Source: Candidatus Omnitrophota bacterium (lineage in GTDB: Bacteria > Omnitrophota > Gorgyraeia > Tantalellales > Tantalellaceae). From it: 64,000 nucleotides of DNA. This document shows, in pieces, positions 1-41,034 of this stretch. Location: positions 11,229 through 75,228 of the forward strand of contig JBARQV010000033.1 of assembly GCA_049643885.1 (NCBI GenBank), written 5' to 3'. The first letter of the stretch is position 1, and each line of letters starts with the position of its first letter. The notes beneath the pieces were generated by a model. It was not told where the DNA came from and searched no databases. It saw nothing but the letters and a program-made list of their open reading frames with translations. The translations under genes were made by a program, and so were the position numbers.

Positions 1-7
1 GCAAGAA

Positions 8-3000
8 GTGGAAGTAGACGGCAAGCCGATGCAAATAACCCTGCCAAGCGAAGTGGGGAATCGAAAGGTCCTGAGCCATGAGATCTTCCCGGCATGGACC
101 GGCGGTTTCCATGTATCGTTCATTCTGGAAAAGACACCGGAGGACATAGAAAATCTCAATAAGGCAAGAGACGTATCCCTGGATAGGATCGGAGCAAAAA
201 TACGGGCGTTGGAAGAAATTCCTGAACAAGAGAGAACACCAGAAACGGAAACCGGGAGAATGCTGGAAGTCCTGAAAAAAGTTCAAGCCGACCTGAAAGC
301 ACGCGACATGAAAGACGTGAGAATTTTTGTCGCGGTTTCTCTTGAAGGAGAAAAACTCAATGCTCATATAATCAGTGGAGTTATAACGGTGCCTGTCGAT
401 CAGCTGGAGAGAACTGAGGTATTGGCATATTCTCTTGGACATGAATCGTCTCACCAGTTTGTCCCTGAAGTATACGAAATAGACGATCCGCAAGTAGAAG
501 AGGATAAAGTTATTGAAGTCGGCGTTGAAGTATTCGGTCCTATGATACAGGTATCCATTGCCCGGTCACCAGAGGGCGGATATGGGATAAACGTTACATC
601 CATAGATATTAATTTAAAAATGGATGACTCGAGGGCCGTGGAAGCGGTAAGAAACGCTTTTATCATGGCCTGGAACCAGCTTGAAGGACAGAAAGCACGC
701 GGCGAAGAGATAGATCCGGAATATGAAGATTTCGTCAGGGCAATGCTCGAAAGAGAAGGCCTGGAGCTGAAATATGAGGCGGCCCCGGGAGTTACGTTCC
801 TGATCGACGACGCCGGCATGCGGGTCCTGTCGGAAAGAACCCCGTTAATGGTGACCCAAGCTTTCCCGGTTGCCCTGGCGCGTGAGATGCTTGTCGCCGA
901 ATTGCCCGAAACCAGGCCAGTCGTTCTACAATCGCTTCTTGCGAATATCGCCAGCGGAAGGGGGATGTTTTCCTGGTTTTTGAGCCCGTTATTATGGTTA
1001 TTAACCATAGGCTCGACTCCGATTCATGAGTGGGCGCATATACAAGCAATCAGGAGATATGGCATAAGCCCTGAATTACTGTCCCCGGCCCAGAGACGTG
1101 GAGAGGATGTTGGAACTTTCTCACTAATATGGAGTCTTATCAAGGGCGAGGTCATAGTTCATAAAGCCCTTTCTGGAGTTGATGAAGCTCACATGGAGGT
1201 ACATGTAGCCGGAGTGAGAGCTAATCTTCGTGCATCTTTTTATTTTGGGATTTTACTGGGAGGTGCAATCGCTGCTTATCTTTCTCTGTCGCCTCTGGCA
1301 TTTTGGCCCATGGTCTTTTTGTCGTATCTTACAGCAATCAATTTCATATCCGTGGTGGTCGAATATTTTGGAAGAGGAGACTTGGCGATGATACTGCGAG
1401 AATCTAAATCTTCTGTTTTTGAACTAATCACCCGCAGGCCGCATCTGGAGGAGTCGATGTTAGAAAGATATTTTTATGGAGAAAAACGAAGACTTTCGAG
1501 GTTGGCGAAAAGAATGGGCGTAAATATCAAGGGATTTGAAGATGACATTGAAAAGATTCGTTACGAAGTCGCAAAAACGCAAGTAAGTTATGTTATAAAA
1601 TGGCGAGCGATTGACCAATCGTTATTAGGAGATTATACCACGCCACTATGGATAGCTGGTAAAAAAGATGAGATTTGGCAGAAAAGGTTTAATGAAATTG
1701 TTTCGTATCTACCCAGAGGCGCGCCAATATTTAACGAAATAAAAGATGATCAAGTGAAAGCAAAGATCATTGCAGAAGTTATTGGTGAAATAGAAGAAGC
1801 TGTGGGTGCCGCCCGGCTCTCGGAGCGCGAGGGATACTTCCACAGCGTTATTGGAATGGCTGATAGAAGCGGTTATTCTGAAATAATGCACGCACGGTGG
1901 GGGAAGGAAATCAATGACCTTTACTTAAAGGTGAAAAAGGACGTGGCAGAAAAGAGAAGGGAGAGAGGGGATTTAAGTTCAGGCTATGCTAAAGGGATGC
2001 TTATAAAAGAAGTATTTGATTCGATCCGCAGGAACGTTAAAGGCGACCTGAGGCAAGCCGAGAACTATGTTAAGTACCATTATGTGCTCGACATCAACCA
2101 GGTCCTCAGCGATAAAAAGGGTGTTTGCAGGCATATGGGAATAATAACGGCGATGATGTTAGAGAAACTCATTCAGCAAAAGGAACTTGATGGCCTTGCC
2201 TTCTATGTTCGCAGGGATTTTCACGCGTGGGCGATGTATGCAACAACTTACGGGGAACTCATTGTCCTGGATGCTGCCCAAAGTATCGATGGGGTTGTAG
2301 AGCAATTCGGCTATCTTGAAGATTTTGCAAGGGCGCAAGACCCATGGGCGGTTCTGAAATCTCCTGCAAGTAGCAACCGGGAAAGAAGAGCATGGGCACG
2401 TTGGTATGCGAAATATGGTAGGGATTCGGAAGATTTGATGCGAAATCCCACAGCTGTAAGGATGATTGTGGAGCGCGTGCAACGACAGGCTGCGCGAGAA
2501 AGAGCAGCAGAAGCAGAAGGCAGAAGAGATTATTACTATGGGACGGTCCTGACAAGTGGGATGGGGCCGGATCAATTGGGCAGGAAAGATATGTTTTATA
2601 TGCCCGCTGCGGTTTTGCAAGAAATTATACGGCAAGGTCCTATTGAGGAGGCTGCTCCTCAACGCGTTGAACCGGAAGATCTGGTCCGCGAGCTTGAACC
2701 TGTGGCCAGGGACGTGGCGGAAAGGTTCAGAAGGGAAGGGATTAGCCCGCAAATGTGGAATATGTACAGGAGAGAGCTTATGGCAAAAGGGCGTAGGCGC
2801 AGTGCCGTTTTCCGGAGGATACATAAGATAATCCTTGATTTCCATACATCCATTTTAATAAAGGAACAGTATAGCAGACCGGTAAGGCATGCTTATGTAC
2901 GAGACTCCGAAGCATTAAACATTGCGATTGACAGAGAACTGGCCACGGCGCGTGAGATGCTTGCCGCCGCGCCGCCAACCGTTGTGCCCGGTAAAGGTGT

Positions 3001-6000
3001 CCTCTGGTTTATCTCGGGGGCTATTTTCGGGCTTATGAACCTTTTGGGGATTACTATTACTCCGGCCAGAAAGGATTTTGTTGAAGATTTTATTATTCCT
3101 TTACTTGAAGAAGGCGGTATGCTCCTGGTGCTGTGTTATTGGGGGGCGTTGCCATATTTATTAGTAAGGCTTGGATTTGCAATTATGCATGCAAGACGAA
3201 GCTTGATAAAGGCAATACTGGGGCGCGTATTCTTAGGCAGGGCACCCCCTGTGGGGGAAAAACCGATTTCTCAGCAAGTCATTGAACAGTTAACCATCCC
3301 CGCCATCGCATCAGCCGCAGCTCTCCTGCCCCTTATAGCTTTAGCTTTTGGAGTACCATTAAGCCCGGCAATATTCGGATTCGTTGCTGGGACAGGGCTC
3401 TTTGCCCATATCCTCGGGAACCGCTATGTTACGGAATTCAAGTCCCGCCTGCAGAAAGCTGTTCTGGGAGAAGAGCTAGGCATAGATTATGAAGGCCGCC
3501 CTGCCGCCTTGGAAAAAGTAAAAACAGACTATGAAACCCTGATACGCCCCCTGACAAATATTCCCTTTGATGAACTGCCGGGTGCGACAAAAGAGATATT
3601 GTTCGGGGCTGGAGTGGACAACGGGTTGGTAGAAATGAGTAGATCGGCAGGCAGAAACGCGAGGGATCTATTCCGGTCCGGTTTTCCAGTTCTAAAGGAC
3701 GCCATTTTGGTCGAGGGAGATCCTGACAGGACAAGGGAGAATCTAATGGCTATAGCTTCCGGCCTTGTAAGGATAGGCGCCGCAAGCGAGTCGTTCGGCC
3801 ATGCCGATTATGTGTTCAGGCTGGGCTTGCCGAAGCTTATACAGGCCTTCGGCCCGGAACTGATAAGGGAGCAGTGGGAAACTTTCGTGTTATTTGGAGA
3901 AACTGCCGGCAAGAATGCGAGATATCTTTTTGGAGCGACCTTGCCGGCGTTCAGGGAAACTATAATCGTAGAGGGGGACGTCCAGAGGACCAGGCAAAAT
4001 TTGCTGGACATCGGGAACAGTATTTTAAGAGTTGTGCCGGAAAACGATGAAATAGCTGAGGAATTACTTAATAACGCCTTGCCTGCGGTGAGCGGTATTA
4101 TCATCGTCGAAGGCGACGCGGAAAAGGCCAAGGATAATTTAAACAGGATCGGAAGCAGTGTTTTAAGAGTTCTTGAGGCAGCAGGCGATAAAGTGCGGGG
4201 CCTGTTCAGGCACGATTATCCCAGGATAGAGGCCGGGCTTGGCGCTGAATTTGTAAAAACACATTGGGAAGGCATTTTCAGATTGGGCGAAGCCGCGGGA
4301 ACGGCCGCAGGCAATTTCTTCAAAAACGGGTTTGCCGGCTTCATCCAAAGCTTTGGTTTAGATTTCCTGGAGAACAACTGGCAGGATATCGTAAAACTGG
4401 GTGAGATCGCGGGTAAGCGTTCAGGCTATGATGTAGGGAATATCTTTAACCGCACATTGGTAGGGTTCGCAAAGATCTATGGACTCGAATTCGTAAAAGA
4501 CAATTGGCGAGATCTCATGGATATCGCCGGATCTACCGGCAAAGACGCCGCTTTTCTTTTGTCAAACGGGTTTTATAGTCTGGAAGAAGGATTCGGCGCT
4601 GATTTTATTAAAGCGCACTGGAAAGACCTTGTGGAATATATCAAAACGAACGGTGAATACGCACTGGAACTGGTCAAGGACGGCTTACCGTCCATGAAAG
4701 AAGCGATCGTAGTAGCGGGAGATGAAGCGGAAACGAGGCAAAATCTCCGAGCCGTGGGCGAGGCGCTTGCGTCTGTCGCCAGGGCCGCGGGGAAGCAAGA
4801 AGCGACGTACGTTTTCAGTCAGCATCTTCCCGATATTAAAAGGCGGTTCGGTAAGGAGTTTATAAGGGATTGCTGGAAGGACATGCTGGGTCTGGGCGCG
4901 AGCACCGGTAAGAATGTAAGATATTTCTTCAGATACGCGCTTTCCGAGTTCAGCAAGACGATCGTGGTAAAAGAGGACGTGGAAAAGACGCGTGAAAATC
5001 TCCGCGCCATAGGAAATGAGCTTGTAAAACTCAGCAATGCGGCGGGAGAACATGCGCTTGTAGTATTTGAGTACGGGATACCCGCCATGATAGGGGCGAT
5101 CGCGGTCGAAGGCAATGCAGAAGAAACTGCAAAAAATTTAGACATTATAGGAAGCGAACTTATAGCTTTGGCGCTGCTGGACGGCGAAGATGCCGGCAGA
5201 CTGTTCGAATATGGACTTCCGGCTCTCGAGAAAGTGCTTATAGTCGAACAGGATGCTGAAAAGACAAAAGAAAATCTTGCTAGTGCCGGAAAGGAGCTTT
5301 TTGAGCTTGCCGCAAAAGTTACAGGTGAGATGCGTATTTTTTGGCGAAGCATATTATGGTCCCAGGATGATATAGTTGCGGAAGGCGATTTCGCGCAAAC
5401 GATCGAAAATTTAAAGACTGTCGGAAAAGACCGCGTAGAATTCACCAATAACGCGGGTATGGGCGGAATTGCAGAAGATTTCTTTAAAACAGTTTTCAAT
5501 TTACGCTCACGCTTCGGACTGGATTTTCTGCCATGGCGTGATGTTATAAAATTCGGCAGAATACACTTTATTTATAATCTAAGCAACAAAGTGGGATGGG
5601 AATTTGTAAGGTCTTATTGGGGGGATTTAATAGAGATCGGTGCTGTCCTGGGGTACAAAACAGGAGAGATGTTCAATGAGGTACTTCCGGCGGTAAAATC
5701 CCTGGTTACTCCCGAAAGTATTCAGGATCTGGTCAGATGGGTGTCGTTAGGCGATCCTGTTGATACCGATATATTGAAGGAATTTCTGGCTTTATCCCGC
5801 GAAGAAAGGGCGGATTATTTTAATACCCGCGAGGATGAGCTGGCCAGAATACGCGATGGCAAATTCGACATAGCTGATCAAAAACACCTTTTTATCGGAT
5901 ACCGGCTTATTCTCGACGATATCCGAGACAATCCGACTGTAAAAAAAGACATAACATATAAAGAATATTTATCTTATGTAAAAGCCGGAAAGCCCGCCAA

Positions 6001-9000
6001 GGAAAGATTCCGTGAAAAAGACCGAGCGGAGCTTACCTACTTATGTTATGAAGCATTGAAACTCATGAATTTTATCAGAGAATTGAAAGCCAGAGCCGAT
6101 TCGCTGGGGAGACCACTTGTGTTGGTTGAGAATATTACGTACGGTTGGATGGCCACAATACCCATTGAAGAGGAGATCAAAGCCATGGGTGTAAAGATCA
6201 TAAAGACCAAAGCCGGATCGACCTTTGCTCACGATAATCCGACGGTTATGCACGGCTTGAATCCTCATGGCCCGGATGATTCCAAACTTTTTAGCGAAGA
6301 AGATCTGAGATATTTCGTAGAAGAACAGCCTTTGGTGTTGGTGGTGGACGGAACTTATTCGCTTGACCCGCAAAAAATGGCGCGTTTTAGAAGAAAAGGG
6401 GCACGATATCCAGATGCCCACCAGGCTTATCGTAATTATTTCCACGCCATAAGCGGAGAGCCTAAAGATAATGATTTTGATATCGATAGATTGCGACTTG
6501 GAAGCAAGCTTAAAGAAGATAATGTTTATAAGGCAGTAAGGAGAAGTGCCGAAGACATCAAGCCGGCGCCCGAAAGGGGTAATTACCAGATGAGATTCTG
6601 GTATCCGGGAAAGAAGTCACTTGGATTAAATAGCCAGAGAAAATCAAGAAAACTTTCAAGCCAATTAGATCTTATCAATTCTAAAAATACGGACGAACCT
6701 CTTTTAGATAAAATCAGCGGTCCGACATTAATTTTTTCTGTGGCTAACATGGAAGATGAGGCCATACCCGATAGTGTCAGGCAGGGGGGGATATATCATA
6801 ATTCCGCGCATTTTGACGACAAAGAACCCTTTGGGAGAACGTTTATTGATGTTACACCTTACGGTCCGAAGATCTCGAATGAATTTCAAAATGCAGCCAT
6901 CGCGGAATACAAGCGATTAAGCCAGCAATTAGGAGTTGTGCCGCCCCTTGCCCCGCCTGCCGTGATGGCGAGGGAAAGCCGCTGGGCCCAGTATGCGGCA
7001 CCTATGGCCGGCGGCGTTCTGGGTTTTCTCACGGTATTTTTATTCGGCTCGGCATTGTTGCCGGGCATATTGAGCGTCTTGCTTTTATCAGCGTATTTTC
7101 CGCTTGCGAGGCAAACGGCCCTGGCGCGTGAAGTTGCCGGTGAAACGGGCGTCGCCGCTAGGCCCGTGGATACGTTCGGGGATATTCTTGGCAACTTCGG
7201 GCCTATTATCGGTCCCTTGGTGTGGCTCCATGAATTTGTTCACCGCCTTACCGGCGTGTTGGGCGTAAAAAGGCTAGGCATATTTAGCAGATTTATGGAC
7301 GAGGCAATGGCTTATTCGGTCGAATCGGTATTCGCCATGCCTGTAGTTGCTGTTTCTTCGATCGTGTATGGGTTAGTCATGCTTTTCATGCCCCCCAGGG
7401 GCGAAGAAGCCCGCGCCCCGCCTGCCGAACCGGGGATAGATTTCGAGGGCGAGTGGTTGACTGTGCCCATGATCGCTGAACGTCTTGAAGAAGAGCCACA
7501 ACTTACAATTGCAATATGGGAAATGCTCACACCGGAACTTAGGAAAGCTGTTGAGAGCCTGCTTAGTGAAGAGAGGAAAAGGCTGGTTAAGATCCGACTT
7601 TTTATTTATGAACACCTGGCTGAACTCCAAAGCAAGGAAGTTTCGAGTGATCTCGAAGATAGAAAGAACAGCGCAAGTTTACTAGAGCGGCAAAGAAAAG
7701 TTTTTGAGATCGGACGAAAGGGATTTGAAGCTCATGGAGTAGAGCATGGTTTAAATGTTTTTCTACAGATCATGCTGGATGGGCTCATCCGGAATGAATT
7801 TAAGGGCCCGCTAAATATGGGACCAAAAGAGTTCTTTGCCGGTCCTTACGGACCGCATTATATCGTTCTTGATCCGCGCAGTGTCAAAAAACCGGGCTTC
7901 GAATGGCAAGAGAGGCAGAACCATTTATTATATCTTGTTCCAAACGGGTCGGACTACAGGTTACTAATAAGCTTGGTAGATAAAGCACGTGATGAAGGGA
8001 TCATTAAACCGGAAGACGCCGGATTCATAAAGAACAGGATAACGACTTATGACATGTTCATTGCAATGACTAAAGAGGTTTCTGTTCCGGAGGAAGTACC
8101 GGCTACAACAGCAGCTGTTGAGGTTCCTGTTGCAGAGGAAGCGGCTGTTACTACGGTATTTGTTGAGGCCCCTGCCATTGCGCCTGCTGAGGTTATACCC
8201 GAGGAAGAAGTTCTTCCCGAGGCGCAGAGGGTATACTCAGCGGCGAGGGATCTTATTCCGGTGCTCCTGGATCTTATAAGGAGAAATTCACCGACTTACC
8301 TTGTAGGGCCTTCTTTTCTGGAGGATCTGGCGAAAGATGAGGGACGCAACAGGAAGGTGGAAAGGGTACTGGGCAAGGAAGGCCACAGGATAGATGCCAG
8401 GTATTGCGGGTACGATCCGACGCGCGCGGATCCGGAAGAAGCCTGGTTTGAAGAACTTACAAAACCTGGTGGAATTCTTGACAGAGCACTCAAAAGGTTC
8501 GGTATAGACGTTGTGGAAAACCCAACGTCAAGAATGACCATAAGGCTTGTCAGGGGGGCGGATGAAGAAAGGAACCAGGACAGAAGAAGTAAATTAGAAG
8601 CGTTAATTGTGAAAAGGCTCATGGATATAAATCCTGTCTTGAGATCAATGCTTGAAACAATGAAAGAAGAAGATCGGAAAAACTGGTTAAGGCAGTACGT
8701 GAAGATAATAGATGTAGATGTCGAAGGTATCGAGCATGTGAATCCCGTGCTGGACCTCTTTGCCGATGCCGGGGCGATGGAGCTGGACAGGTACGAGAAA
8801 AAAGATTACAAGGACGAAGCCCCTGACGAGCTTAAGGAACGATTGGTCATACTGTTAAAGCTTTCCCTGGGCAGTCTGGTCGATTCAGAGAGAGGTGACA
8901 TACTCGAAGGCCTGACCGCGGGTAAGCTTTACGGGGTTTTAGAAAGGGTTTTTTCGGGGCTAGCGTATTTCGCGGTCAAAAGAATAGATTGGGAAAGTAT

Positions 9001-9046
9001 AAGGGACAGGATAGATGCCGAGAACGAAGTAATAAGATCGCTGTAA
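8..9046 (+). CDS. Giant multidomain protein, 5'-partial (gene continues upstream of window); 3012 aa visible. Contains TM blocks with HExxH motifs, a transglutaminase-like Cys-His-Asp core, a long alpha-helical tandem-repeat array, and a C-terminal domain shared with the next ORF
   Basis: Uninterrupted ORF of 9 kb reaching the window edge with no stop upstream; TAA at 9044-9046; strong periodic coding signal; internal paralogy to downstream ORF at 9061. Confidence 0.85.
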   Translation: MEVDGKPMQITLPSEVGNRKVLSHEIFPAWTGGFHVSFILEKTPEDIENLNKARDVSLDRIGAKIRALEEIPEQERTPETETGRMLEVLKKVQADLKARDMKDVRIFVAVSLEGEKLNAHIISGVITVPVDQLERTEVLAYSLGHESSHQFVPEVYEIDDPQVEEDKVIEVGVEVFGPMIQVSIARSPEGGYGINVTSIDINLKMDDSRAVEAVRNAFIMAWNQLEGQKARGEEIDPEYEDFVRAMLEREGLELKYEAAPGVTFLIDDAGMRVLSERTPLMVTQAFPVALAREMLVAELPETRPVVLQSLLANIASGRGMFSWFLSPLLWLLTIGSTPIHEWAHIQAIRRYGISPELLSPAQRRGEDVGTFSLIWSLIKGEVIVHKALSGVDEAHMEVHVAGVRANLRASFYFGILLGGAIAAYLSLSPLAFWPMVFLSYLTAINFISVVVEYFGRGDLAMILRESKSSVFELITRRPHLEESMLERYFYGEKRRLSRLAKRMGVNIKGFEDDIEKIRYEVAKTQVSYVIKWRAIDQSLLGDYTTPLWIAGKKDEIWQKRFNEIVSYLPRGAPIFNEIKDDQVKAKIIAEVIGEIEEAVGAARLSEREGYFHSVIGMADRSGYSEIMHARWGKEINDLYLKVKKDVAEKRRERGDLSSGYAKGMLIKEVFDSIRRNVKGDLRQAENYVKYHYVLDINQVLSDKKGVCRHMGIITAMMLEKLIQQKELDGLAFYVRRDFHAWAMYATTYGELIVLDAAQSIDGVVEQFGYLEDFARAQDPWAVLKSPASSNRERRAWARWYAKYGRDSEDLMRNPTAVRMIVERVQRQAARERAAEAEGRRDYYYGTVLTSGMGPDQLGRKDMFYMPAAVLQEIIRQGPIEEAAPQRVEPEDLVRELEPVARDVAERFRREGISPQMWNMYRRELMAKGRRRSAVFRRIHKIILDFHTSILIKEQYSRPVRHAYVRDSEALNIAIDRELATAREMLAAAPPTVVPGKGVLWFISGAIFGLMNLLGITITPARKDFVEDFIIPLLEEGGMLLVLCYWGALPYLLVRLGFAIMHARRSLIKAILGRVFLGRAPPVGEKPISQQVIEQLTIPAIASAAALLPLIALAFGVPLSPAIFGFVAGTGLFAHILGNRYVTEFKSRLQKAVLGEELGIDYEGRPAALEKVKTDYETLIRPLTNIPFDELPGATKEILFGAGVDNGLVEMSRSAGRNARDLFRSGFPVLKDAILVEGDPDRTRENLMAIASGLVRIGAASESFGHADYVFRLGLPKLIQAFGPELIREQWETFVLFGETAGKNARYLFGATLPAFRETIIVEGDVQRTRQNLLDIGNSILRVVPENDEIAEELLNNALPAVSGIIIVEGDAEKAKDNLNRIGSSVLRVLEAAGDKVRGLFRHDYPRIEAGLGAEFVKTHWEGIFRLGEAAGTAAGNFFKNGFAGFIQSFGLDFLENNWQDIVKLGEIAGKRSGYDVGNIFNRTLVGFAKIYGLEFVKDNWRDLMDIAGSTGKDAAFLLSNGFYSLEEGFGADFIKAHWKDLVEYIKTNGEYALELVKDGLPSMKEAIVVAGDEAETRQNLRAVGEALASVARAAGKQEATYVFSQHLPDIKRRFGKEFIRDCWKDMLGLGASTGKNVRYFFRYALSEFSKTIVVKEDVEKTRENLRAIGNELVKLSNAAGEHALVVFEYGIPAMIGAIAVEGNAEETAKNLDIIGSELIALALLDGEDAGRLFEYGLPALEKVLIVEQDAEKTKENLASAGKELFELAAKVTGEMRIFWRSILWSQDDIVAEGDFAQTIENLKTVGKDRVEFTNNAGMGGIAEDFFKTVFNLRSRFGLDFLPWRDVIKFGRIHFIYNLSNKVGWEFVRSYWGDLIEIGAVLGYKTGEMFNEVLPAVKSLVTPESIQDLVRWVSLGDPVDTDILKEFLALSREERADYFNTREDELARIRDGKFDIADQKHLFIGYRLILDDIRDNPTVKKDITYKEYLSYVKAGKPAKERFREKDRAELTYLCYEALKLMNFIRELKARADSLGRPLVLVENITYGWMATIPIEEEIKAMGVKIIKTKAGSTFAHDNPTVMHGLNPHGPDDSKLFSEEDLRYFVEEQPLVLVVDGTYSLDPQKMARFRRKGARYPDAHQAYRNYFHAISGEPKDNDFDIDRLRLGSKLKEDNVYKAVRRSAEDIKPAPERGNYQMRFWYPGKKSLGLNSQRKSRKLSSQLDLINSKNTDEPLLDKISGPTLIFSVANMEDEAIPDSVRQGGIYHNSAHFDDKEPFGRTFIDVTPYGPKISNEFQNAAIAEYKRLSQQLGVVPPLAPPAVMARESRWAQYAAPMAGGVLGFLTVFLFGSALLPGILSVLLLSAYFPLARQTALAREVAGETGVAARPVDTFGDILGNFGPIIGPLVWLHEFVHRLTGVLGVKRLGIFSRFMDEAMAYSVESVFAMPVVAVSSIVYGLVMLFMPPRGEEARAPPAEPGIDFEGEWLTVPMIAERLEEEPQLTIAIWEMLTPELRKAVESLLSEERKRLVKIRLFIYEHLAELQSKEVSSDLEDRKNSASLLERQRKVFEIGRKGFEAHGVEHGLNVFLQIMLDGLIRNEFKGPLNMGPKEFFAGPYGPHYIVLDPRSVKKPGFEWQERQNHLLYLVPNGSDYRLLISLVDKARDEGIIKPEDAGFIKNRITTYDMFIAMTKEVSVPEEVPATTAAVEVPVAEEAAVTTVFVEAPAIAPAEVIPEEEVLPEAQRVYSAARDLIPVLLDLIRRNSPTYLVGPSFLEDLAKDEGRNRKVERVLGKEGHRIDARYCGYDPTRADPEEAWFEELTKPGGILDRALKRFGIDVVENPTSRMTIRLVRGADEERNQDRRSKLEALIVKRLMDINPVLRSMLETMKEEDRKNWLRQYVKIIDVDVEGIEHVNPVLDLFADAGAMELDRYEKKDYKDEAPDELKERLVILLKLSLGSLVDSERGDILEGLTAGKLYGVLERVFSGLAYFAVKRIDWESIRDRIDAENEVIRSL
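2110..2280 (+). other. Transglutaminase-like cysteine-protease core (Cys-His-Asp) inside ORF 8-9046
   Basis: KGVCRHMGIITAMM...DFHAWAMYATTYGELIVLDAAQ matches the G-x-C...HAW...D signature of transglutaminase-like superfamily. Confidence 0.6.
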
Positions 9047-12000: not shown

Positions 12001-15000
12001 CGCGAGAGGATCGGCGACAGGGAGCTTGAAGGGCGGAATTTCGGGTATGAATACAAGATAGAACGTGACGAAGCGAGCCCTCTTGGCAGGAAGGTAAGGA
12101 TAGACCTGACAGAGAACCCCCCGGAAGGGTTTGAGAGCGCGAGGCCTGTGATCAAGGCGAAAAAATATACTTACGAGGACATCTATGAATATTTTAATTT
12201 TTATCACAAATACTGGATGCCCAAAGAAGGACACGGTGATTGGGAGCTTAGCAGGTTCCTGAGGGAGATAGTGGCCAGTGACCTCACTCCTGAAGAGAAG
12301 CGCGAAAAGATACTGGGGTTCTTCGAAGAGTTGACCCAGGGGCAGATGTATATGGATGGCAAGGGCGTGCCGGCGCCTGATAAAGACCCGCTTGAGCTCA
12401 TCAACGGGGAGATAAGGGGCACCCCGGGACGGCTTCCCTTTGAGGAAAGGCTTCTAGCAATGCTCAAATCGCCCCCCGAAGTGCCCCCTGTCACAAGACT
12501 GGCACCTGGTAAAGGTGTCCTGGATATTGTCGCAAGGGGTGTTTTCAAGGTAACCGATCCCTTTATGGCCAGGGAAGATGCTGAAGATCTTGTCGTTCCT
12601 GTTGTTGAGGAAGGTATTATGTTTCTCGCGCTTGCGCCGTATTTATGGGGCGGCGCGCCGTCTTTGGTCGTTCTTTTTGGGGCAGTACTTTATTTTCTTT
12701 TGAGGGCAGGGTTTATTGCGGCTCACGCGCTGCAGGACAGGGCGCCCCCGGGGAGAAGAAGGACGATCTTTGAACGAATTATCATCCCCGCCCTTATATC
12801 TGTTCCCGCTTTCTCACTTCCTGTTCTGGCATTATTAGGAGCTTCTCCCATAGCCCTTGGCATTGTTGCGGGCGCGGTGACACTTTTACATATGGCCGCG
12901 AACCGCTATGTTACTTTTGCAGGCTCAAAGTTACAGAAGGCTGTTCTTGGAAGAAAGGTCGAGCGGTATATCGGAGAGACGGGGACAGATGTCGAAAGGT
13001 TTAAGGTAGACATCGGGGATGACAGGGAATCGTTACAAAAGTTTATGAAGAAAGTAAAAAGTGTTTTTATGACCGAAAGGGAGGTCGCATCATTGCAAAA
13101 CGTTCTGGCGCACGGGGAGGATTCGCTTGAAAAAATGGGGAGAGTGGGCAAACTTTGGCAGGCCGTGCGTTACGGGAACGTGAGGCAGAAAAAAGCCGAT
13201 TTTCTTAGAGGATTCCTGGAAGAAATAAACAGCACCGGGACCTTTAGTGTAGGAAGGACCGAAACTTTAGAACCAAGAAGCGTAACAAGGACCAAGAGTG
13301 ACATGGAAATGATCGAAGAACAGCGTAAGGTATACGTGGAAGGAGTGGAAGAAATATTCAAGCGCGTAGAATCGGGCCAGGAATATGATACCGGGGAACT
13401 GGCTGGGTTATTCGACAGGATCATACTCAATGTCCTGACACAGTTCGGTATAAAGGATGACGTTATGGTGGTAGGCCTCGGGAGTTACGGTAGAGGAGTC
13501 GTCCCGATAGGGTCGGATTGTGATGCCGTGTTCATAGTAAGAGGCGCCTTTCCCGGGCTTGTAAAAAAAGATATACAGGAAAGGGTGGTCTGGATACTGG
13601 AACAGATCGGCCTGGACGTCGATCCGGGAGCTCTCCTGCCCGGGGACCTGAAAGATTGGCCTACCATGGACCAGCTCAGGGCGGCATTCGATGAAGGGGT
13701 CGAAAGCGGGGAGCTTGTGGGTATAAATATGCTGTTCCTCGCGGATAACAGGCTTGTTTCGGATGCCGATGAAAAGTCGATACCGGAGTTCGGGGAATAT
13801 TGCAGGATGAGAGACGAAATAATCACCGGGAAGCACCCGGCATTTATCGCTCACCTTGTCCTGGAAATAGCGAATTTCCTGAGGATAACCGGCGGAACAA
13901 CTCCGGAAGCGGCGGGACCTTCAGCGGGCCTTATAGATATATATTACAGGTACGGGGATGATAAAGAAAGAATCATGCAGGAGATCGGCAAGAAGATAAA
14001 ATCTTTATATACAGTTGAGGATGGCGAGCTGAGACTAAGCCCCTTGGGCGAAAGTGAAATACTCCGCGACATCAGACAATTCAACGTTAAACAGGATTCC
14101 GGCGGCATGAGGAGCCTTGACTTTGTTTTATGGACAGGGAGGGTCTTGAGCGGGGTGAACGACCCCGATCCTTACAAGATCATTGAGCAGTTGTCCGCCG
14201 AGTACGCGACCGGCGAAGAAAAAGAAATATTGAGGGAAACAATGGATTATTTCATCAAGTTAAGGTCCGTTATTAATTATATCTCCTCTTTGGAAAAGGC
14301 CGAGGGGACTCCCGAGTTCATCGAACATGACACTATAGATTTCAACGATATCAGCAGCATTGAGCAGATCGTCAAAGTCATGGAACCGCAGAACGAGCTG
14401 GTGCGGAAGATCATGTCATTAGAAGGACAGGAACAGGATATAGAATCCGAACTGAGGAAACTAAGCACTATAGATACCGAGGATGTAGAGGAGAAAAGAA
14501 GATTATCGGGAGAGAGGCGGTCAGTTCGGGGAGAATTGTTGAAATCACGCAAAGAATTGGCAGGTGAGTTCCGGGGAAAGGTCAATTCCATGAGGGGTAA
14601 AATAGCGGCAATCGGTTTAAAGGCACTGGATAAATATCTTGTAAGCTTTATAAGGGAAGGCAAGATAAGGGATGAAGACGCTTTGTACGTGATGGTCCCC
14701 ATCGGCCAAAGGGCTCTTCTTGACCTGAAAAGAGAACTGAAACACCGGGGAGAGTATAGAAAAGACCTTGCCAGGGTAATGCGCGAGCGATATCGCGCTT
14801 CACGGGCTGATCTCGGCAAAGGCGTCCTGGGATTTATCGCGGCAGGTGTTTACAAATTTACTGATACCGTCATGGACCTTTTTGGCCGTGAAAAGACGCC
14901 CGGCTACAGGGCTTTTGTCGAAGATTATTTTATTCCCGTTATAGAAGAAGGCGCGATGTTCCTCGTTCTACGCTCCTGGGGGACGTTGCCGTATTTTCTC

Positions 15001-18000
15001 ATCCGGCCTGGGTTCATACTGGCTCACGCGTTCCAGGACAGAGCTCCTCCCGGGAGAAGAAGGACGATCTTCGAACGGATCATCATCCCCGCCCTTATAT
15101 CAGTTCCTGCCTTTTCACTTCCTATTCTCGCGCTTTTGGGAGCATCGCCTGTAGTACTTGGAGTTGTCGTAGGTGCGGTGACACTTTTACACATGGCCGC
15201 CAACCGCTTTGTAACTCTAACAGGTTCCAGACTCCAGAAAGCCGTTCTGGGAAAGAAGTTTGTCCAGCCTCCCGTGAGAAAGGCCAGGATCATTTCAATA
15301 AGAGGAGAAAAGGTTTCAGATACGTATCCTGTTGTGCCTGTAACTGTTCGCGAGGAAGCGGAACCGGTGCCCGGAGTCGAATTTATAGCGACGGAGGAGA
15401 TACTCGATGAACTGATGACCGATTATCCCGAAAGGATCCTCAGAGACCGCGGGATGGACGCCGAACAATATTCAAGGCTCGCTGAAACAGCCGTTGTCAC
15501 GAACAAAAAACCGATCAAAGTCGATCCCAGCGGGAGGGAATGGATAGGTGAGCGGTATATCATCGGGCGGACCCCGTCGGGCGAGGATATTGAACTTGGC
15601 AGAGGCGGCGTAGCTGTTGTTTATTATGGCCTTGATACTCAAAGTGGAGATGAGATCGTTTTAAAGGTTCCTGAAGAAGAAAGAGCTGTTCCCGGTAAAG
15701 AAAAATTACCGTTTGAACTTAAGAAAATGTCATTATTACGCGAGGCGGCATTCATAGAATACGTGAAGGAGCAGGAAAAACAAGGCCGTGTGGATCTTGA
15801 GGGCGGGGTGGTAGATTTACGCGACGCAGGGGTCTACAGGGGGGCGTACCTTGATGATAAGGGGCGTCCGACCGGGAAGGAATACACCAATTATTATATA
15901 GCAATGGGTTACGTTCATGGTTTGACGCTGGGGGATCTTTTGAACCAGCGCGGTCCACTTGCGGAAGACGAAGCCAGGGCTCTTTTTGAAAGGGTATACG
16001 ATACAACAAGAAAACTCCACAAGATAGGCGTGATCCATATGGACATAAAATCGGATAACATCTTCATTCCTCTGGTCAACGGCAAGCTTGAGTTCGGGAA
16101 AGCCGTGCTGGGAGATTTCGGCTTTTCGATAAAAGTCGATAATGTCGATGGCCAGTATGTTCACGATTTCACGTACGGGACTGAAGGGTACGTACCGCCG
16201 GAGGGGGGCGTAGGTGTATTTTCAGGGAGGAACGACATGTACGCCCTGGGCATGACGCTTTATGAAATGATGACCGGCACGGTAATCGAAGATGGCGTCA
16301 AGGCGGAATTCACGCCCGACATGGAAAGTGCGCTTCCCGCCGATCTGGTCGCTGTTGTCAGATTGTTGACACAGGAAAACTGGGAAGAGTCGTCAGTTCT
16401 GGCGGAAGGCGTAACCGGGATATTGGAGAGAGGAAAAGTCGCCATAGCGGACGATGTCGTTCTTGAGGATTTTGAAGGGTTTGAACTCGAGGACATGGTC
16501 TTAAAGCTCATGAAGCCCGGTCAGAAATACTCAAGGGAGGAATTTAAAGCCGAGGTAGAGAAACTCAAGTTATTTTTAACGCGTGCGATAGGGGTCAATC
16601 TCCGGCAGATGGCCGGTGATATTTCGGAAGCGAAGTTCGGCGCCGGCAAGCGCGACGGATTCAAACGTTTCATCGTTAAAAAGATCCGGCATGCCGGGCG
16701 CGGCGATTACAAGCACGCGTTAAGGGTCGAGGCTGATACCGACCAAGGCCGGCAGGTCTTCGCGGTCAAGTTCCTGAAGCCCAAAAGGCCCGAGTATACT
16801 TTTGAGGGTTTTAAGAAAATGATAAAAACAGAATACGAAAATAGCAGGAGATTAAGTGAAACGGGTTTAGCGGCGGATTATTACGGGGAACCTTATTATG
16901 TCGGTGAACGGTTCGATGAAAAGTTCTCAAAAGGATTAGAAGAGCATGGCATCCTGGGCTTGCTTGTGGGTGAATATGTGGAAGGTACGCCTGTCAGTGA
17001 GATATACGAAAGAGATGAAAGGAAAGAAGCGTATCGCGGATTAGTGAAAGCCACGGTCCGTCTCTGGCTAGAGACTTATGATCCTGAAACGCAGGCCGGT
17101 CTTGTTTTGTATGACCTTGCCGGGAGGAATTATGTGCTTGAGGATGGAACGGGCAGAATAAAGACCATAGATCCCGCGTTTTTGGATCCGTTCAATGTTG
17201 ATTACCTGAGAGACATGATAAGCGCTCTTCTCATAGCGGAATTGGCCATGGAAAAAGAAGGTATAAGGTTCGACGCGATGCCGGGCGGCGCGGACGAGAT
17301 GTATTTCCTTTCGGCGATACCGGAGGAGATAAATGATTACCTGAGGGAAAAAGGCGATAGTTTGGACGAAAGGAAAAAGAGGGCCGTCATGGAGCTTCGT
17401 GGAGCCGAGGCGTTAAGGGACATCCAGGTAGCCGTTGAGGAAAAGATCGACCTACAAAAAGCTATTGCTGACGCGTCAGGCAGAGGCGATGTGATACGGA
17501 TGGCCGAGCTAAGCGACGGAAAAGAACTGGAAATACATGACGCTAAAGCGTTAGTGCGGGACGATGAGGAGATGTTCAAAGAACTTCTGGCGGCGGTCCA
17601 GAAGGTTGTAGCTTCTTCTTTCGGGCCTTCAAAAGCATACGGGCTTGCGGCTGAGTTGAGGATAAAGCAGATCCTCCAGGAGAACGAGGTGATGATAGCC
17701 GTTGTGGGTAACGAAGTGATCGGCTTTCTGGCATATCAGTTCAAGCCCGGGGAAGCCCGGAGTATTTTAGACTGGTTTGCCGTGATGCAGGAGCATCAGG
17801 GCAAAGGCATCGGCTCGAGGATGATGGACGAATTCATGGAGGTGTCACTGAAAGCCCGCGAGACCGGCATCGAAAAGGCCTGGTGGCATTCATGGGACGA
17901 AAAGTCAGACGATTTTTATATTGGATATTTTAGAAAAAAAGGAATAAAACCTGAACAGGTCGGACGTAATTTTACTCTTGGACTGGATGCAGTTGGCGCG

Positions 18001-19431
18001 GCAATGGCTCCTGACCACGGGGCGATAATGAGAGGGCTCAGGCCGGAGGACGTGGAAGAAGCCATAACCGGTGATGTCGACAAGAGCACGTTGTCCGAAG
18101 AGTTCAAGGCGATCGAAGAAATGCTTGACGATAGCTCATTAGAAAGGAACAGGACACTTCGCGAGCTGGCAGATAAACTGGAGATCCCATGGGATCTTAT
18201 GCTTTCAAGGATCAAAAAAGCCAGGGACGACCTTCTGAAAGGAAATAAAGCATTGAAGGAGTTTCCCGCCATTGTCCGCGGTCTCGATGAATATGCTCTT
18301 GGCATGGCCACGGAAGACAAAATAACTTACAGCACAGAGATCCTCGCGATGTTACCCGCGCCCTTGAGAGCCGAATATGTCCTGCACGAAGCGATCTGTT
18401 ATTATTTCCCGGGATTGGAGGGGCACCAGACCGCCAGGCAGATACAGATGGTCCTGTTCCCGCGGAATTACGGGAACCTGACGCCTGAAGAAAGAGAAGA
18501 ACTTGAGGGGACAGAGGCGCTGACAGGTGACTTAACGTTGTTTTTAAGCGCATTTATCGATGTAACGGCCCCGCCGCTTGAAGGCCCGCCGGCTGAAAGA
18601 AAAGCGCAGGAGATCTACGCCCAGGCCAGGATGCTGGCCCCGGCGCTTGCCGATGCCGTAAGGCGGGGCGCGCCGACGTATGACATAGGGCCGTCATTTT
18701 TCAGGGACATGGCCCGGGACGAGCAATGCAATAAGGAAGTAGCGAGGATACTCGGCAAAAAAGGCCACAATATTTACGCCAGGCATTGCGCGTTCGACCC
18801 CACGAAAGATACTGCCGCGAAATGGTTCGAAAATATGGTCGAAGACAGGCCCGGGGGAGTCCTTTACGACATGCTGGAGACTTTCAGCCGGGACGCCTCA
18901 GTAGACCCAAGGACCAGGATGACTATCAGGCTTATAAGAGGGCCGGATGAAGCAGGGAACAAGGCAAGAAGAAAAGATATGGAAGGTTTTATTTTAAGGA
19001 ACCTTAAGCTCATGAATCCCGATCTGGCAGAGAGACTGGAGACGATGAGCGAGGCCGAAAGAAATGAGTGGTTCAACAAACATGTGAAGGTATTGGACGT
19101 GGATGTCGGGAATATTGAACACGTCAACCCTGTGCTGGATCTTATTACGGACATCGGCGTCATGGAGCTTGACCGCTACGCGAAGCACGATTACGAAGGT
19201 AAAGCTCCGCGGGACCTTGAGGAGAACCTTGTCAGACTATTGAACCTTTCGATAGGGAGTTTTGTGAATATCGATACGAAACAGGCGCTTAAAAAGGTCT
19301 CCCGTAAAGATCTATACAGGGTTTTAGCAGCCCTTTTTACGGGAAATATGTACATTATGGTAAGGAAGATCGACTGGGGCAGCATAAGGGAGAAGATCAG
19401 GGCCCAGAATGCTGTCCTTAAATCGTTGTAA
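9061..19431 (+). CDS. Giant multidomain protein (3456 aa): N-terminal signal/anchor + conserved 'QDAHCN' module, two polytopic TM modules, GlnE/GlnD-like nucleotidyltransferase, Hanks-type Ser/Thr kinase, second atypical kinase-like fold, GNAT acetyltransferase-like segment, conserved C-terminal domain
   Basis: ATG at 9061 preceded by GAGGT 6 nt upstream; 14 nt after stop of upstream ORF; 10.4 kb uninterrupted ORF; multiple recognisable catalytic motifs in-frame. Confidence 0.9.
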   Translation: MNWLKRVHRDQEIKKLFSFQRRSLALKACSVITSVAFFFNILSYDIALSGPLQKKQPATEGQAWAIRVPPESSHVGSGVNSGPGTPQKLTIKGFTLPEYLGVVTDRFSPPAKEPDKIVVLIQDAHCNYAAQKKIAEIVRHFNKLYRVRVVNMEGGKGDYNLSIFLDIGDKKVREEVSDYFVKEGQISGAEYFAINDPFRAYLWGVETSELYLENLKVYRESLGYRGEVEYFLDSLTYILNNLKRHIYSKELLDFDNEYSRYKAGDIKFKDYVNYLLSVAKEKKVYIKNLLHLYLLYHSIAWEGEIDFKRADHERDILISRLEGVLSGKEMDELINKTVEFRNKRLSQTEFYGYLLKKAEEVKLDLADFPEFKKYLGYIFLYHVVDRAKVMEEIGILENAIKGSLYENDKQKELDLLSKHLTLTKNFFDATLTRSDYEYYEQNKLAFETQNYISFIEKEAPKYKITAQLPSDIQNLDFRMAEMDKFYEYSFKRDLAFLDNIKFNATESPTSNIQQPTSILITGGFHAENLCKLFKENDIAYICIMPNFTSEEGYVCPYFDLLAGERPQVEMMISDIMGYSLAIASILSQLGPDVYDENARRIFGLHVQWKRAVAEGKGGLAIMAEDGRFLGAVNARGEIVPEDRSKGFEVARVPAVVPAIAPATPELVDLFGNWFDLNLELDYFSGEFERGEAKGLAAIQEGVQAERGMYPKEEIEGGDFYFDLEAFSYFSRGLIDKATLAEVMRPYSDKLPGQINVIVVDKGPKAVARYGNTIAINRAVFELTRGVSPVIRNLITMKLLDTALRASSETGIREGEDLGISLADLRRVGSREKPDRIMEVIRQVFSPESKLASDEQEENLILAYDYDQKYIAQGSFNEEILKQAIKRGFTTVIVRFLEGDVIGGQVEVIFANKSDVLVERIDMLPENMDVLFSAVGENMEPGSVWRFTRRFLTYDIKRRAFLAKERPRIMTYELERKLEVYRERIGDRELEGRNFGYEYKIERDEASPLGRKVRIDLTENPPEGFESARPVIKAKKYTYEDIYEYFNFYHKYWMPKEGHGDWELSRFLREIVASDLTPEEKREKILGFFEELTQGQMYMDGKGVPAPDKDPLELINGEIRGTPGRLPFEERLLAMLKSPPEVPPVTRLAPGKGVLDIVARGVFKVTDPFMAREDAEDLVVPVVEEGIMFLALAPYLWGGAPSLVVLFGAVLYFLLRAGFIAAHALQDRAPPGRRRTIFERIIIPALISVPAFSLPVLALLGASPIALGIVAGAVTLLHMAANRYVTFAGSKLQKAVLGRKVERYIGETGTDVERFKVDIGDDRESLQKFMKKVKSVFMTEREVASLQNVLAHGEDSLEKMGRVGKLWQAVRYGNVRQKKADFLRGFLEEINSTGTFSVGRTETLEPRSVTRTKSDMEMIEEQRKVYVEGVEEIFKRVESGQEYDTGELAGLFDRIILNVLTQFGIKDDVMVVGLGSYGRGVVPIGSDCDAVFIVRGAFPGLVKKDIQERVVWILEQIGLDVDPGALLPGDLKDWPTMDQLRAAFDEGVESGELVGINMLFLADNRLVSDADEKSIPEFGEYCRMRDEIITGKHPAFIAHLVLEIANFLRITGGTTPEAAGPSAGLIDIYYRYGDDKERIMQEIGKKIKSLYTVEDGELRLSPLGESEILRDIRQFNVKQDSGGMRSLDFVLWTGRVLSGVNDPDPYKIIEQLSAEYATGEEKEILRETMDYFIKLRSVINYISSLEKAEGTPEFIEHDTIDFNDISSIEQIVKVMEPQNELVRKIMSLEGQEQDIESELRKLSTIDTEDVEEKRRLSGERRSVRGELLKSRKELAGEFRGKVNSMRGKIAAIGLKALDKYLVSFIREGKIRDEDALYVMVPIGQRALLDLKRELKHRGEYRKDLARVMRERYRASRADLGKGVLGFIAAGVYKFTDTVMDLFGREKTPGYRAFVEDYFIPVIEEGAMFLVLRSWGTLPYFLIRPGFILAHAFQDRAPPGRRRTIFERIIIPALISVPAFSLPILALLGASPVVLGVVVGAVTLLHMAANRFVTLTGSRLQKAVLGKKFVQPPVRKARIISIRGEKVSDTYPVVPVTVREEAEPVPGVEFIATEEILDELMTDYPERILRDRGMDAEQYSRLAETAVVTNKKPIKVDPSGREWIGERYIIGRTPSGEDIELGRGGVAVVYYGLDTQSGDEIVLKVPEEERAVPGKEKLPFELKKMSLLREAAFIEYVKEQEKQGRVDLEGGVVDLRDAGVYRGAYLDDKGRPTGKEYTNYYIAMGYVHGLTLGDLLNQRGPLAEDEARALFERVYDTTRKLHKIGVIHMDIKSDNIFIPLVNGKLEFGKAVLGDFGFSIKVDNVDGQYVHDFTYGTEGYVPPEGGVGVFSGRNDMYALGMTLYEMMTGTVIEDGVKAEFTPDMESALPADLVAVVRLLTQENWEESSVLAEGVTGILERGKVAIADDVVLEDFEGFELEDMVLKLMKPGQKYSREEFKAEVEKLKLFLTRAIGVNLRQMAGDISEAKFGAGKRDGFKRFIVKKIRHAGRGDYKHALRVEADTDQGRQVFAVKFLKPKRPEYTFEGFKKMIKTEYENSRRLSETGLAADYYGEPYYVGERFDEKFSKGLEEHGILGLLVGEYVEGTPVSEIYERDERKEAYRGLVKATVRLWLETYDPETQAGLVLYDLAGRNYVLEDGTGRIKTIDPAFLDPFNVDYLRDMISALLIAELAMEKEGIRFDAMPGGADEMYFLSAIPEEINDYLREKGDSLDERKKRAVMELRGAEALRDIQVAVEEKIDLQKAIADASGRGDVIRMAELSDGKELEIHDAKALVRDDEEMFKELLAAVQKVVASSFGPSKAYGLAAELRIKQILQENEVMIAVVGNEVIGFLAYQFKPGEARSILDWFAVMQEHQGKGIGSRMMDEFMEVSLKARETGIEKAWWHSWDEKSDDFYIGYFRKKGIKPEQVGRNFTLGLDAVGAAMAPDHGAIMRGLRPEDVEEAITGDVDKSTLSEEFKAIEEMLDDSSLERNRTLRELADKLEIPWDLMLSRIKKARDDLLKGNKALKEFPAIVRGLDEYALGMATEDKITYSTEILAMLPAPLRAEYVLHEAICYYFPGLEGHQTARQIQMVLFPRNYGNLTPEEREELEGTEALTGDLTLFLSAFIDVTAPPLEGPPAERKAQEIYAQARMLAPALADAVRRGAPTYDIGPSFFRDMARDEQCNKEVARILGKKGHNIYARHCAFDPTKDTAAKWFENMVEDRPGGVLYDMLETFSRDASVDPRTRMTIRLIRGPDEAGNKARRKDMEGFILRNLKLMNPDLAERLETMSEAERNEWFNKHVKVLDVDVGNIEHVNPVLDLITDIGVMELDRYAKHDYEGKAPRDLEENLVRLLNLSIGSFVNIDTKQALKKVSRKDLYRVLAALFTGNMYIMVRKIDWGSIREKIRAQNAVLKSL
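13390..14290 (+). other. GlnE/GlnD-type nucleotidyltransferase domain inside ORF 9061-19431
   Basis: VVGLGSYGRGVVPIGSDCDAVFIV matches hG[GS]...[DE]h[DE]h nucleotidyltransferase motif with downstream helical domain typical of GlnE/GlnD-like enzymes. Confidence 0.55.
15550..16300 (+). other. Hanks-type Ser/Thr protein kinase domain inside ORF 9061-19431
   Basis: GRGGVAVVYYG (Gly loop), IVLKV (VAIK), HMDIKSDNIF (catalytic loop), GDFGFS (DFG), GYVPPE (APE), DMYALGMTLYEMMTG. Confidence 0.75.
17600..17900 (+). other. GNAT acetyltransferase-like segment inside ORF 9061-19431
   Basis: IGFLAYQF...FAVMQEHQGKGIGSRMMDEF resembles GNAT motif A (Q/R-x-x-G-x-G/A) with preceding beta-strands. Confidence 0.5.
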
Positions 19432-40702: not shown

Positions 40703-41034
40703 AAATTCTTAACGCTTTTCCGTCATTTTAAGCTGACATGGCAAAACTCGCCCCTCGCTATAGGAATGCTCGGGGCTCGGACAGTTGCCATGCCTACGCA
40801 TGTTTAATAGCCGTGACAACTTCAGCTTAAAATATCCGGAAAAGCTGAATTTTTGAATGATCCGTCAGGCATGCATTCGCCGTTATATGATTTTATTGTT
40901 TTTGCAGAACTAATTTTCGCGCCCCTCTGCCACTTTGACACTTTTATGATGTAGTTGCCCAATTTATTGGGCAAACCATCGAGCAAGAATAGTTGCTCGA
41001 TAAATCGAGCAACTACATATATAATGGTTTTAAT

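Follow-up and report, generated by a model that had tools for sequence, protein, structure and literature searches.

Are the giant proteins of Omnitrophota maintained as single polypeptides, or are they cut into pieces? The question is open in the literature, where only C39 and S8 peptidases have so far been put forward as candidates, and it is raised anew by a window of 64,000 nucleotides (the whole stretch of DNA analysed here) from a Candidatus Omnitrophota bacterium (GenBank assembly GCA_049643885.1, contig JBARQV010000033.1, positions 11,229 to 75,228 of the forward strand). The window begins with an array of six giant genes that follow one another on the same strand (2-40192), the first of which, G1, codes for a giant protein with multiple passes through the membrane. 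The source is an Omnitrophota metagenome-assembled genome, as judged from the NCBI names of the neighbouring proteins. In its sequence the HExxH signature of zincin proteases occurs three times. We consider it reasonably likely that G1 is a giant protein equipped with several zincin-type modules, among them a block resembling the core of site-2 proteases (S2Ps), called block 1 hereafter, and a distinct block 2.

The open reading frame (ORF) of G1 is open at the left edge of the window, which holds the 3' part, 3,014 codons plus stop, of a gene of 3,957 amino acids (aa). Its full length was read on contig JBARSM010000028.1 (GCA_049644745.1), with an exact match to the next gene. Residue numbers given here are based on the window (aa 1 = nt 2-4) and become full-length numbers by adding 943, the N-terminal 943 aa lying off the window. 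The features on which the argument depends are the following:

2-9046, plus strand: G1, 3' part of the gene, open at the left window edge
440-454, plus strand: HESSH, third HExxH motif (H147, E148, H151), in a soluble domain
914-1426, plus strand: block 1, very probably a divergent S2P core (M50/M50B-like) of about 170 aa, with limits defined by homology
1025-1039, plus strand: HEWAH (CAT GAG TGG GCG CAT, in the ORF frame; H342, E343, H346), in block 1
1211-1225, plus strand: GxxxN motif, G404-V-R-A-N408, on the second core transmembrane (TM) helix of block 1, aligning with AGPxxS/N of S2Ps
1340-1381, plus strand: third motif of block 1, N447-x6-E454-YFGR-G459-D460, counterpart of NxxPxxxxDG, with D460 or E454 as candidate third metal ligand
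6947-7456, plus strand: block 2, a conserved module with limits defined by homology
7229-7243, plus strand: HEFVH (CAT GAA TTT GTT CAC, in the ORF frame; H2410, E2411, H2414), in block 2
7298-7315, plus strand: DExxAY of block 2, D2433-E2434-A-M-A-Y2438, candidate third ligand plus Tyr on the predicted helix after HExxH

An initial annotation of the window, made from the sequence alone, had placed HEWAH and HEFVH inside two polytopic membrane regions. Direct reading finds both motifs exactly where they had been reported, and the proposed hydrophobic ranges (990-1420 and 6990-7420) agree roughly with the homology limits listed above. The motifs do lie beside hydrophobic helices; their position is at the polar end of such a helix, as in known S2Ps, so that a location within the membrane helix is only approximately right. 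HEWAH comes just after the hydrophobic stretch FSWFLSPLLWLLTIG (aa 323-337) and is followed by two strong TM helices (aa ~409-434 and 435-456). The stretch around HEFVH is moderately hydrophobic (mean Kyte-Doolittle value of about 1.1), with a hydrophobic segment of 39 residues (aa 2331-2369) on one side and a TM helix (aa 2442-2465) on the other. The HESSH motif had been overlooked.

Could these pentapeptides be accidents of a long hydrophobic sequence? The initial annotation had itself estimated one HExxH per few thousand residues, and no motif region of G1 matches curated models: scans of all three regions with Pfam and NCBIfam gave no relevant match, and phmmer searches of the G1 blocks against the PDB returned noise only. 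The ORF of G1, however, has three HExxH motifs (aa 147, 342 and 2410) against 0.06 expected from its composition (Poisson probability of three or more, about 4e-5), while the other five giant ORFs of the window, G2-G6, have none. Moreover, reading of the relatives combined with local searches indicates that each motif belongs to a recurrent domain of its own, and all three are invariant in the homologous domains of other giants at 20-45% identity. Because of this excess and, more decisively, of this conservation, chance is excluded for all three motifs, and we give it practically no probability.

Block 1 and the site-2 protease core

An exhaustive HMMER search with aa 1-1200 of G1 against 1.84 billion cluster representatives retrieved, apart from G1, 75 proteins, many of which are giants of 2,000-7,700 aa. 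The relatives with a named source, P0002 and P0039 (the latter from Candidatus Tantalella remota), all come from Omnitrophota. Ten copies of block 1 were assembled in alignment A2, from G1, P0002, P0003, P0004, P0012, P0039 (twice), P0026, P0029 and P0038, and an eleventh is present in the JGI metagenome locus L011. These copies, 20-36% identical to G1, follow the same order of elements: an amphipathic helix with the SLLAN motif, a TM helix, the HExxH helix, a GEV strand, a TM helix with GxxxN, another TM helix with N-x6-E and, finally, GD. Ten residues are invariant throughout A2, namely T339, H342, E343, H346, G354, G382 (in GEV), G404, N447, G459 and D460, and N408 and E454 are conserved in nine of the ten copies.

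Other searches for relatives were negative. A protein-homologue search found no match with aa 1-560 of G1 or with A2, a result of little weight since this search appears to be blind to giants: its sole productive run gave 44 candidates with matches of only 114-181 aa, and even queries that reproduced stretches of proteins present in the database letter for letter returned nothing. Two scans of genome contigs, with block 1 and with the C-terminal domain of G1, yielded no relative, and a scan of viral contigs with the block-2 alignment A6 yielded no match.

How does block 1 relate to known proteases? Six of nine block-1 homologues match Peptidase_M50B (PF13398) and two match Peptidase_M50 (PF02163) in Pfam, with best scores of 21.6 bits (E 1.9e-4, profile positions 12-105) and 15.5 bits, respectively. 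The gathering thresholds being 26 bits for the former family and 27.2 bits for the latter, all these homologues fall outside curated membership, as does G1, which matches neither family. When the A2 profile was compared with all PDB sequences, the top match was 3B4R, the S2P of M. jannaschii, with an E value of 0.2 that is not significant alone, in a register which over 108 positions aligns HExGH, the GG strand and AGPxxS. In a comparison of profiles by hhalign, A2 aligned with A4, a set of M50 proteins that carry this Pfam annotation and were collected with the 3B4R segment as query, at a probability of 93.9% (E 1.5e-7, 119 columns), and a greedy alignment of another selection (11 block-1 and five M50 sequences) reached 89.9% over 144 columns. 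The controls remained clean, an unrelated TM alignment scoring 0.4% and 20 column shuffles of A2 all scoring 1.0% or less. Structure prediction with AlphaFold2 and A2 gave a model of block 1 with pLDDT 80.3 and pTM 0.75 (from the single sequence, pLDDT was 52.5 and the model unusable). Foldseek comparison of this model with 350,542 PDB chains ranked 3b4r_A and 3b4r_B at the top, with prob 0.82 and 0.85 against at most 0.23 for the remaining matches listed. Given the strong profile-profile match with its controls, the sub-threshold Pfam matches and the top rank of 3B4R by both sequence profile and fold, block 1 is very probably a remote and divergent homologue of the S2P/M50 core. At the level of sequence, homology with M50 is thus what the comparison of block 1 establishes, along with the conservation of the motif residues, which holds for block 2 also.

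The alignments further indicate which residues may form the metal site. The HExxH of block 1, at the end of its TM helix, is aligned with HELGH of M50, and GxxxN with AGPlvS. The third motif, which across the family has the form N-x6-E-x5-9-G(R/K)GD, is placed such that N447 corresponds to a conserved Asn that comes ahead of FNL(I)P and E454 to the Asn within FNL(I)P, with GD near PMDGG. Its spacing from N to D is 13 residues in G1 and 17 in most relatives versus 8 in S2Ps, and greedy hhalign sets GRGD only near PMDGG. From this placement of N447, E454 and GD, D460 would be the likeliest third ligand of block 1, with E454 as the alternative. A downstream acidic candidate, which the initial annotation had named as something to look for, is present in the invariant G459-D460 pair, in addition to E454.

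Block 2, possible activities and rival explanations

Block 2 is represented by six copies in four proteins, 29-63% identical to G1: besides that of G1, those of P0005 and P0002 were found by local searches, that of L010 and two in L011 by a metagenome scan (the sequence of L009 looks identical to that of L010). The module consists of a long hydrophobic segment, a polar linker, FGPIIGPLVWL-HEFVH, 18 residues, DEAMAY and a TM helix. All six copies share the pattern F-G-P-x2-G-x2-V-x2-H-E-x-V-H-x6-G-x(7-11)-D-E-x2-A-Y, in which the gap between HExVH and DExxAY is x14-18. By hhalign, block 2 scores 4.3% and 8.5% with M50, showing no homology beyond the HExxH pentapeptide, 1.3-1.7% with block 1 and 0.5% with the soluble HExxH domain; there is no consistent Pfam match and no match among PDB sequences. 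Two further readings of block 2, as a duplicate of block 1 and as a shortened S2P, were also tested and rejected, only the HExxH turn and the following G(I/V) being alike. Hence, of the two intramembrane metalloproteases initially proposed, block 1 is upheld by its M50 homology and block 2 belongs to a separate family, with scores of 4-9% to M50 and negative Pfam and PDB searches. Block 2 probably represents another metallopeptidase or metal site tethered to the membrane, one that fits no known class; that it is specifically a peptidase is a distinct possibility which we rate somewhat short of even.

From these patterns we infer metal binding, catalysis, substrates and membrane orientation. 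In block 1, the putative zinc ligands at the end of the TM helix are H342 and H346, and activation of water would fall to E343. After HExxH the chain would pass through a loop, the short GEV strand, the TM helix with G404xxxN408 and the last TM helix with N447-x6-E454 before reaching G459-D460, and the third zinc ligand would be contributed by D460 (or E454) after this last helix. The most likely activity would be that of a zinc-dependent protease acting on peptide segments within the membrane or next to it, as in S2Ps. RseP-type S2Ps cleave hydrophobic segments resembling leaders, and the most likely substrates of block 1 would be TM segments of G1 itself or the signal-peptide-like hydrophobic leaders of the co-encoded G2-G6. 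Such leaders are found at the start of G2-G6 and relatives, as well as of G1. In block 2, H2410 and H2414 on one helix and D2433 and E2434 on the next could form a helix-loop-helix metal site similar to that of gluzincins or aspzincins, held at the membrane by the flanking TM helices. The counts of Lys and Arg at the TM helix preceding the soluble domain would suggest an orientation like that of RseP, with the active site towards the cytoplasm, and the signal-peptide-like N-terminus speaks for the opposite one.

Several points weigh against reading G1 in this way. The third motif of block 1 lacks the Pro of NxxPxxxxDG and has a variable spacing from N to D; G1 carries Ala where nine of the ten relatives have the Gly of HExGH, as well as a low-confidence insert of about 25 residues after the HExxH helix. 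Pfam scores of the homologues, at most 21.6 bits, compare with gathering scores of 26-27.2 bits, and G1's own block 1 is without any Pfam or NCBIfam match. A protease-like fold had been anticipated for the predicted structure, and 3B4R is indeed its top match, but the similarity is weak in absolute terms (E 0.28-0.6, TM-score 0.38-0.49). The topology signals conflict, the signal-peptide-like N-terminus opposing the positive-inside rule unless a TM helix has been missed; block 2 is without a detectable relative of known function; and the processing of giants in Omnitrophota has only been hypothesised, for C39 and S8 domains. Might block 1 then be a pseudo-protease derived from S2Ps, serving as a membrane anchor or scaffold, or as a module that binds substrate or metal without hydrolysis? 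Its strong divergence, below all curated thresholds, would suit such a role, as would the Ala for Gly, the insert and the missing Pro in G1, and the occurrence of several copies per protein, for instance the three of P0039, the third of which is without GxGD. Pseudo-enzymes usually lose their catalytic residues, however, and here H, E, H and the Asp of GD have remained invariant in ten copies at about 30% identity, with N408 and E454 retained in nine of them. We regard a pseudo-protease as unlikely, and a catalytically active block 1 as rather likely.

For block 2 the balance is different. This module may not be a peptidase at all: it could be a membrane-proximal hairpin with a metal-binding or structural function, such as a regulatory zinc site or an element interacting with block 1, in the company of which it is found in three proteins (G1, P0002 and L011p). 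The lack of any relation to protease families in Pfam, the PDB or M50 agrees with this possibility, and so does the very small size of the module, about 45 residues between TM helices. A complete HExxH with its catalytic Glu, followed on the next helix by an invariant acidic pair and Tyr, is nonetheless the pattern of catalytic zincins and not of structural zinc sites, and we regard the non-peptidase alternative as serious, if less likely than not. Far less can be said for the initial suggestion that the two blocks are intramembrane proteases of the M48 (Ste24/HtpX) or CAAX (Rce1/CPBP) type. HExxH beside TM helices is known in M48 too, and a separate block of G1 (nt 2954-3496) displays the CPBP-like motifs EE, FxxxH and HxxxN. 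Yet no copy of blocks 1 and 2 matches Peptidase_M48 or CPBP in Pfam at E <= 10, and neither block matches the solved sequences of Ste24 and HtpX; M50B and M50 are the only protease families recovered for block 1. CPBP enzymes, moreover, are without HExxH, the motifs EExxxR, FxxxH and HxxxN/D are absent from blocks 1 and 2, and the block that does carry CPBP motifs is itself negative in Pfam and the PDB. Neither type finds support for either HExxH block, and we consider this origin highly improbable.

Other modules of G1 and the giant gene array

Around the two blocks, the array contains further modules and genes as follows:

2-889, plus strand: soluble conserved domain of about 290 aa with HESSH, directly N-terminal to block 1
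2006-2275, plus strand: transglutaminase-like Cys/His/Asp core, a weak assignment (aa 669-758; Pfam DUF553, E 0.012, 15.5 bits versus a cut-off of 20.5)
2954-3496, plus strand: third hydrophobic block (aa 985-1165); its 18 copies, spread over many giants, all keep the motifs EE, R..F...H and H...N
8153-9043, plus strand: C-terminal domain of about 300 aa ending in ...RSL, common to G2 (18547-19428) with 47-49% identity
~12466-12972 and ~14797-15267: paralogues in G2 of the third hydrophobic block
G2: 3,456 aa
G3: 2,320 aa
G4: 905 aa
G5: 2,454 aa
G6: 1,103 aa

The soluble domain has H147, E148, H151, Y158 and E167 invariant in seven sequences (alignment A5). It recurs in P0002, P0003, P0006, P0007, P0012 and P0017, with partial copies in P0005 and P0056, the latter without HExxH. 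Its immediate C-terminal neighbour is block 1 in G1, P0003 and P0012, and a block-2 copy in P0005. No match to this domain was obtained in Pfam or the PDB. P0012 had been considered as a stand-alone gene combining a soluble zincin with an S2P, a candidate that was rejected, for it is only one piece of a giant gene broken by frameshifting, on a long-read contig of 1.64x. A further soluble HExxH context, G(I/L)AHE(I/L)SHE..G / LxMHE(I/G)(S/G)H, is recurrent in related giants and absent from G1 (P0002, aa ~2369; P0004, ~707; P0007, ~1114; P0017, ~2191, 5280 and 5931), and the giants related to G1 are unusually rich in distinct zincin-like modules.

The transglutaminase-like core of the initial annotation is visible as a Cys/His/Asp pattern, its assignment to DUF553 being only sub-threshold; the region matches about 50 homologues, one of which gives DUF553 at E 7.6e-4. 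The likeness of the third hydrophobic block to CPBP/Rce1, a glutamic intramembrane protease, is one of motifs only, profile searches having found no match to PF02517 or other Pfam families and none in the PDB. Between ~3570 and 5700 (aa ~1190-1900), about eight helical repeats of the type (I/V)(I/V)VEGDxExTxxNLxxIGxxL, alternating with FGxEF(I/V)xxxW units, can be seen in the translation of G1. The C-terminal domain, which P0002-P0004 have as well, may be a common sorting or assembly signal; in all three of these relatives the protein closes with ...(V/I)LRSL, like G1 and G2.

Beyond G1, a domain of about 550 aa that follows the signal-peptide-like leader is common to G2, G3, G5 and G6 by BLASTP and, as judged by eye, to the off-window N-terminus of G1. 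Its motifs are, in order, HIQDAHCN, NLEGG, GAEYYAINN and TGGFH, and no Pfam match was found for it in the giants of the array; its GxxH motifs presumably recall domains of the TraB/TIKI type. G2 additionally contains a Ser/Thr protein kinase domain (window 15592-16296, G2 aa 2178-2412, E 3.9e-24) and a GNAT acetyltransferase domain (window 17677-17919, G2 aa 2873-2953, E 7.2e-9). In the relatives P0002-P0004, one and the same polypeptide unites kinase-like regions with blocks 1 and 2, from which it appears that domains are shuffled among giant genes. After G6, the window has an aldo/keto reductase gene at 40993-41973. In a related locus, L012 (ENA contig ctg28328_1.64x_l, the name of which indicates 1.64x coverage), the giant gene is split into many small ORFs and is followed downstream by a gene of 2,391 aa and an aldo/keto reductase; since this reductase comes after a giant gene in both cases, the two loci appear syntenic.

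Comparison with known systems

Giant proteins of Omnitrophota, multi-TM and with many enzymatic domains, have been described as 'Archaeovorins' and others (West-Roberts et al. 2023, bioRxiv 10.1101/2023.11.21.568195) and also in a complete-genome survey of 2026 (bioRxiv 10.64898/2026.06.07.730766). With its 3,957 aa, G1 belongs to the same phylum and is far smaller than the proteins of >30,000 aa that are central to these two papers. Proteolytic self-cleavage of the giants has been proposed, by way of C39 and S8 peptidase domains (bioRxiv 10.1101/2023.11.21.568195; bioRxiv 10.64898/2026.06.07.730766). The terms 'M50', 'metalloprotease' and 'transglutaminase' are absent from the texts of both papers, and our literature search found no paper linking Omnitrophota with 'site-2 protease'.

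To the C39 and S8 candidates the present analysis adds the conserved core of a putative S2P-like intramembrane metalloprotease and, likewise within giants, two more modules with an invariant HExxH. Block 1 fits the published proposal that Omnitrophota giants are cut, its function being deduced from sequence, and the giants may perform cleavage at the membrane on their own chains or on those of neighbouring proteins. A broader scheme, in which giants would be self-processing polyproteins whose precursor and co-encoded leaders or anchors are cut by the S2P-like domain, block 2, the soluble HExxH domain and possibly the CPBP-like module, is speculative and, in our judgement, rather unlikely; if true, block 2 and the soluble HExxH domain would be the founders of two previously undescribed metallopeptidase families. 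The analysis provides residues for mutation, E343, H342 and D460 in block 1 and E2411 and D2433 in block 2, and it predicts cleavage at transmembrane segments, for which metaproteomes can be searched.

Among known metal sites, those of gluzincins and aspzincins combine HExxH with an acidic ligand on the next helix, as in the HExxH-x18-E of M1 aminopeptidases and the GTxDxxYG of aspzincins. Block 2 is similar in motif pattern only, with HExVH followed 14-18 residues on by D-E and Tyr; it differs from these enzymes in having no sequence or profile relation to them and in being confined to about 45 residues between TM helices. The best curated match of the block-1 homologues is the Peptidase_M50B-like family PF13398, which comprises uncharacterised relatives of S2Ps with HExGH, G-rich strands and an Asp situated late in the sequence, beyond the final TM helix, even if most of these matches cover only the part with the TM helix and HExxH.

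The closest parallel remains that with S2Ps proper (MEROPS M50: M. jannaschii 3B4R, Escherichia coli RseP, Bacillus subtilis SpoIVFB; PF02163), with which block 1 shares the order of core elements: first a TM helix that has HExxH at its end, then a short strand region, next a TM helix with G(P)xxN/S and last a TM helix in which a conserved Asn precedes an acidic residue, in block 1 the candidate ligand. In contrast with S2Ps, which are free-standing proteins with PDZ or CBS domains, block 1 is an internal module of multidomain proteins of 2,000-5,000 aa, sometimes in multiple copies, has N-x6-E-x5-9-G(R/K)GD in place of NxxPxxxxDG and a conserved N-terminal SLLAN helix, and scores below the gathering thresholds of Pfam. 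The curated models of Pfam and NCBIfam miss this S2P branch entirely, in which the core of the protease would have become an internal, at times repeated, part of much larger proteins, with an altered third motif.

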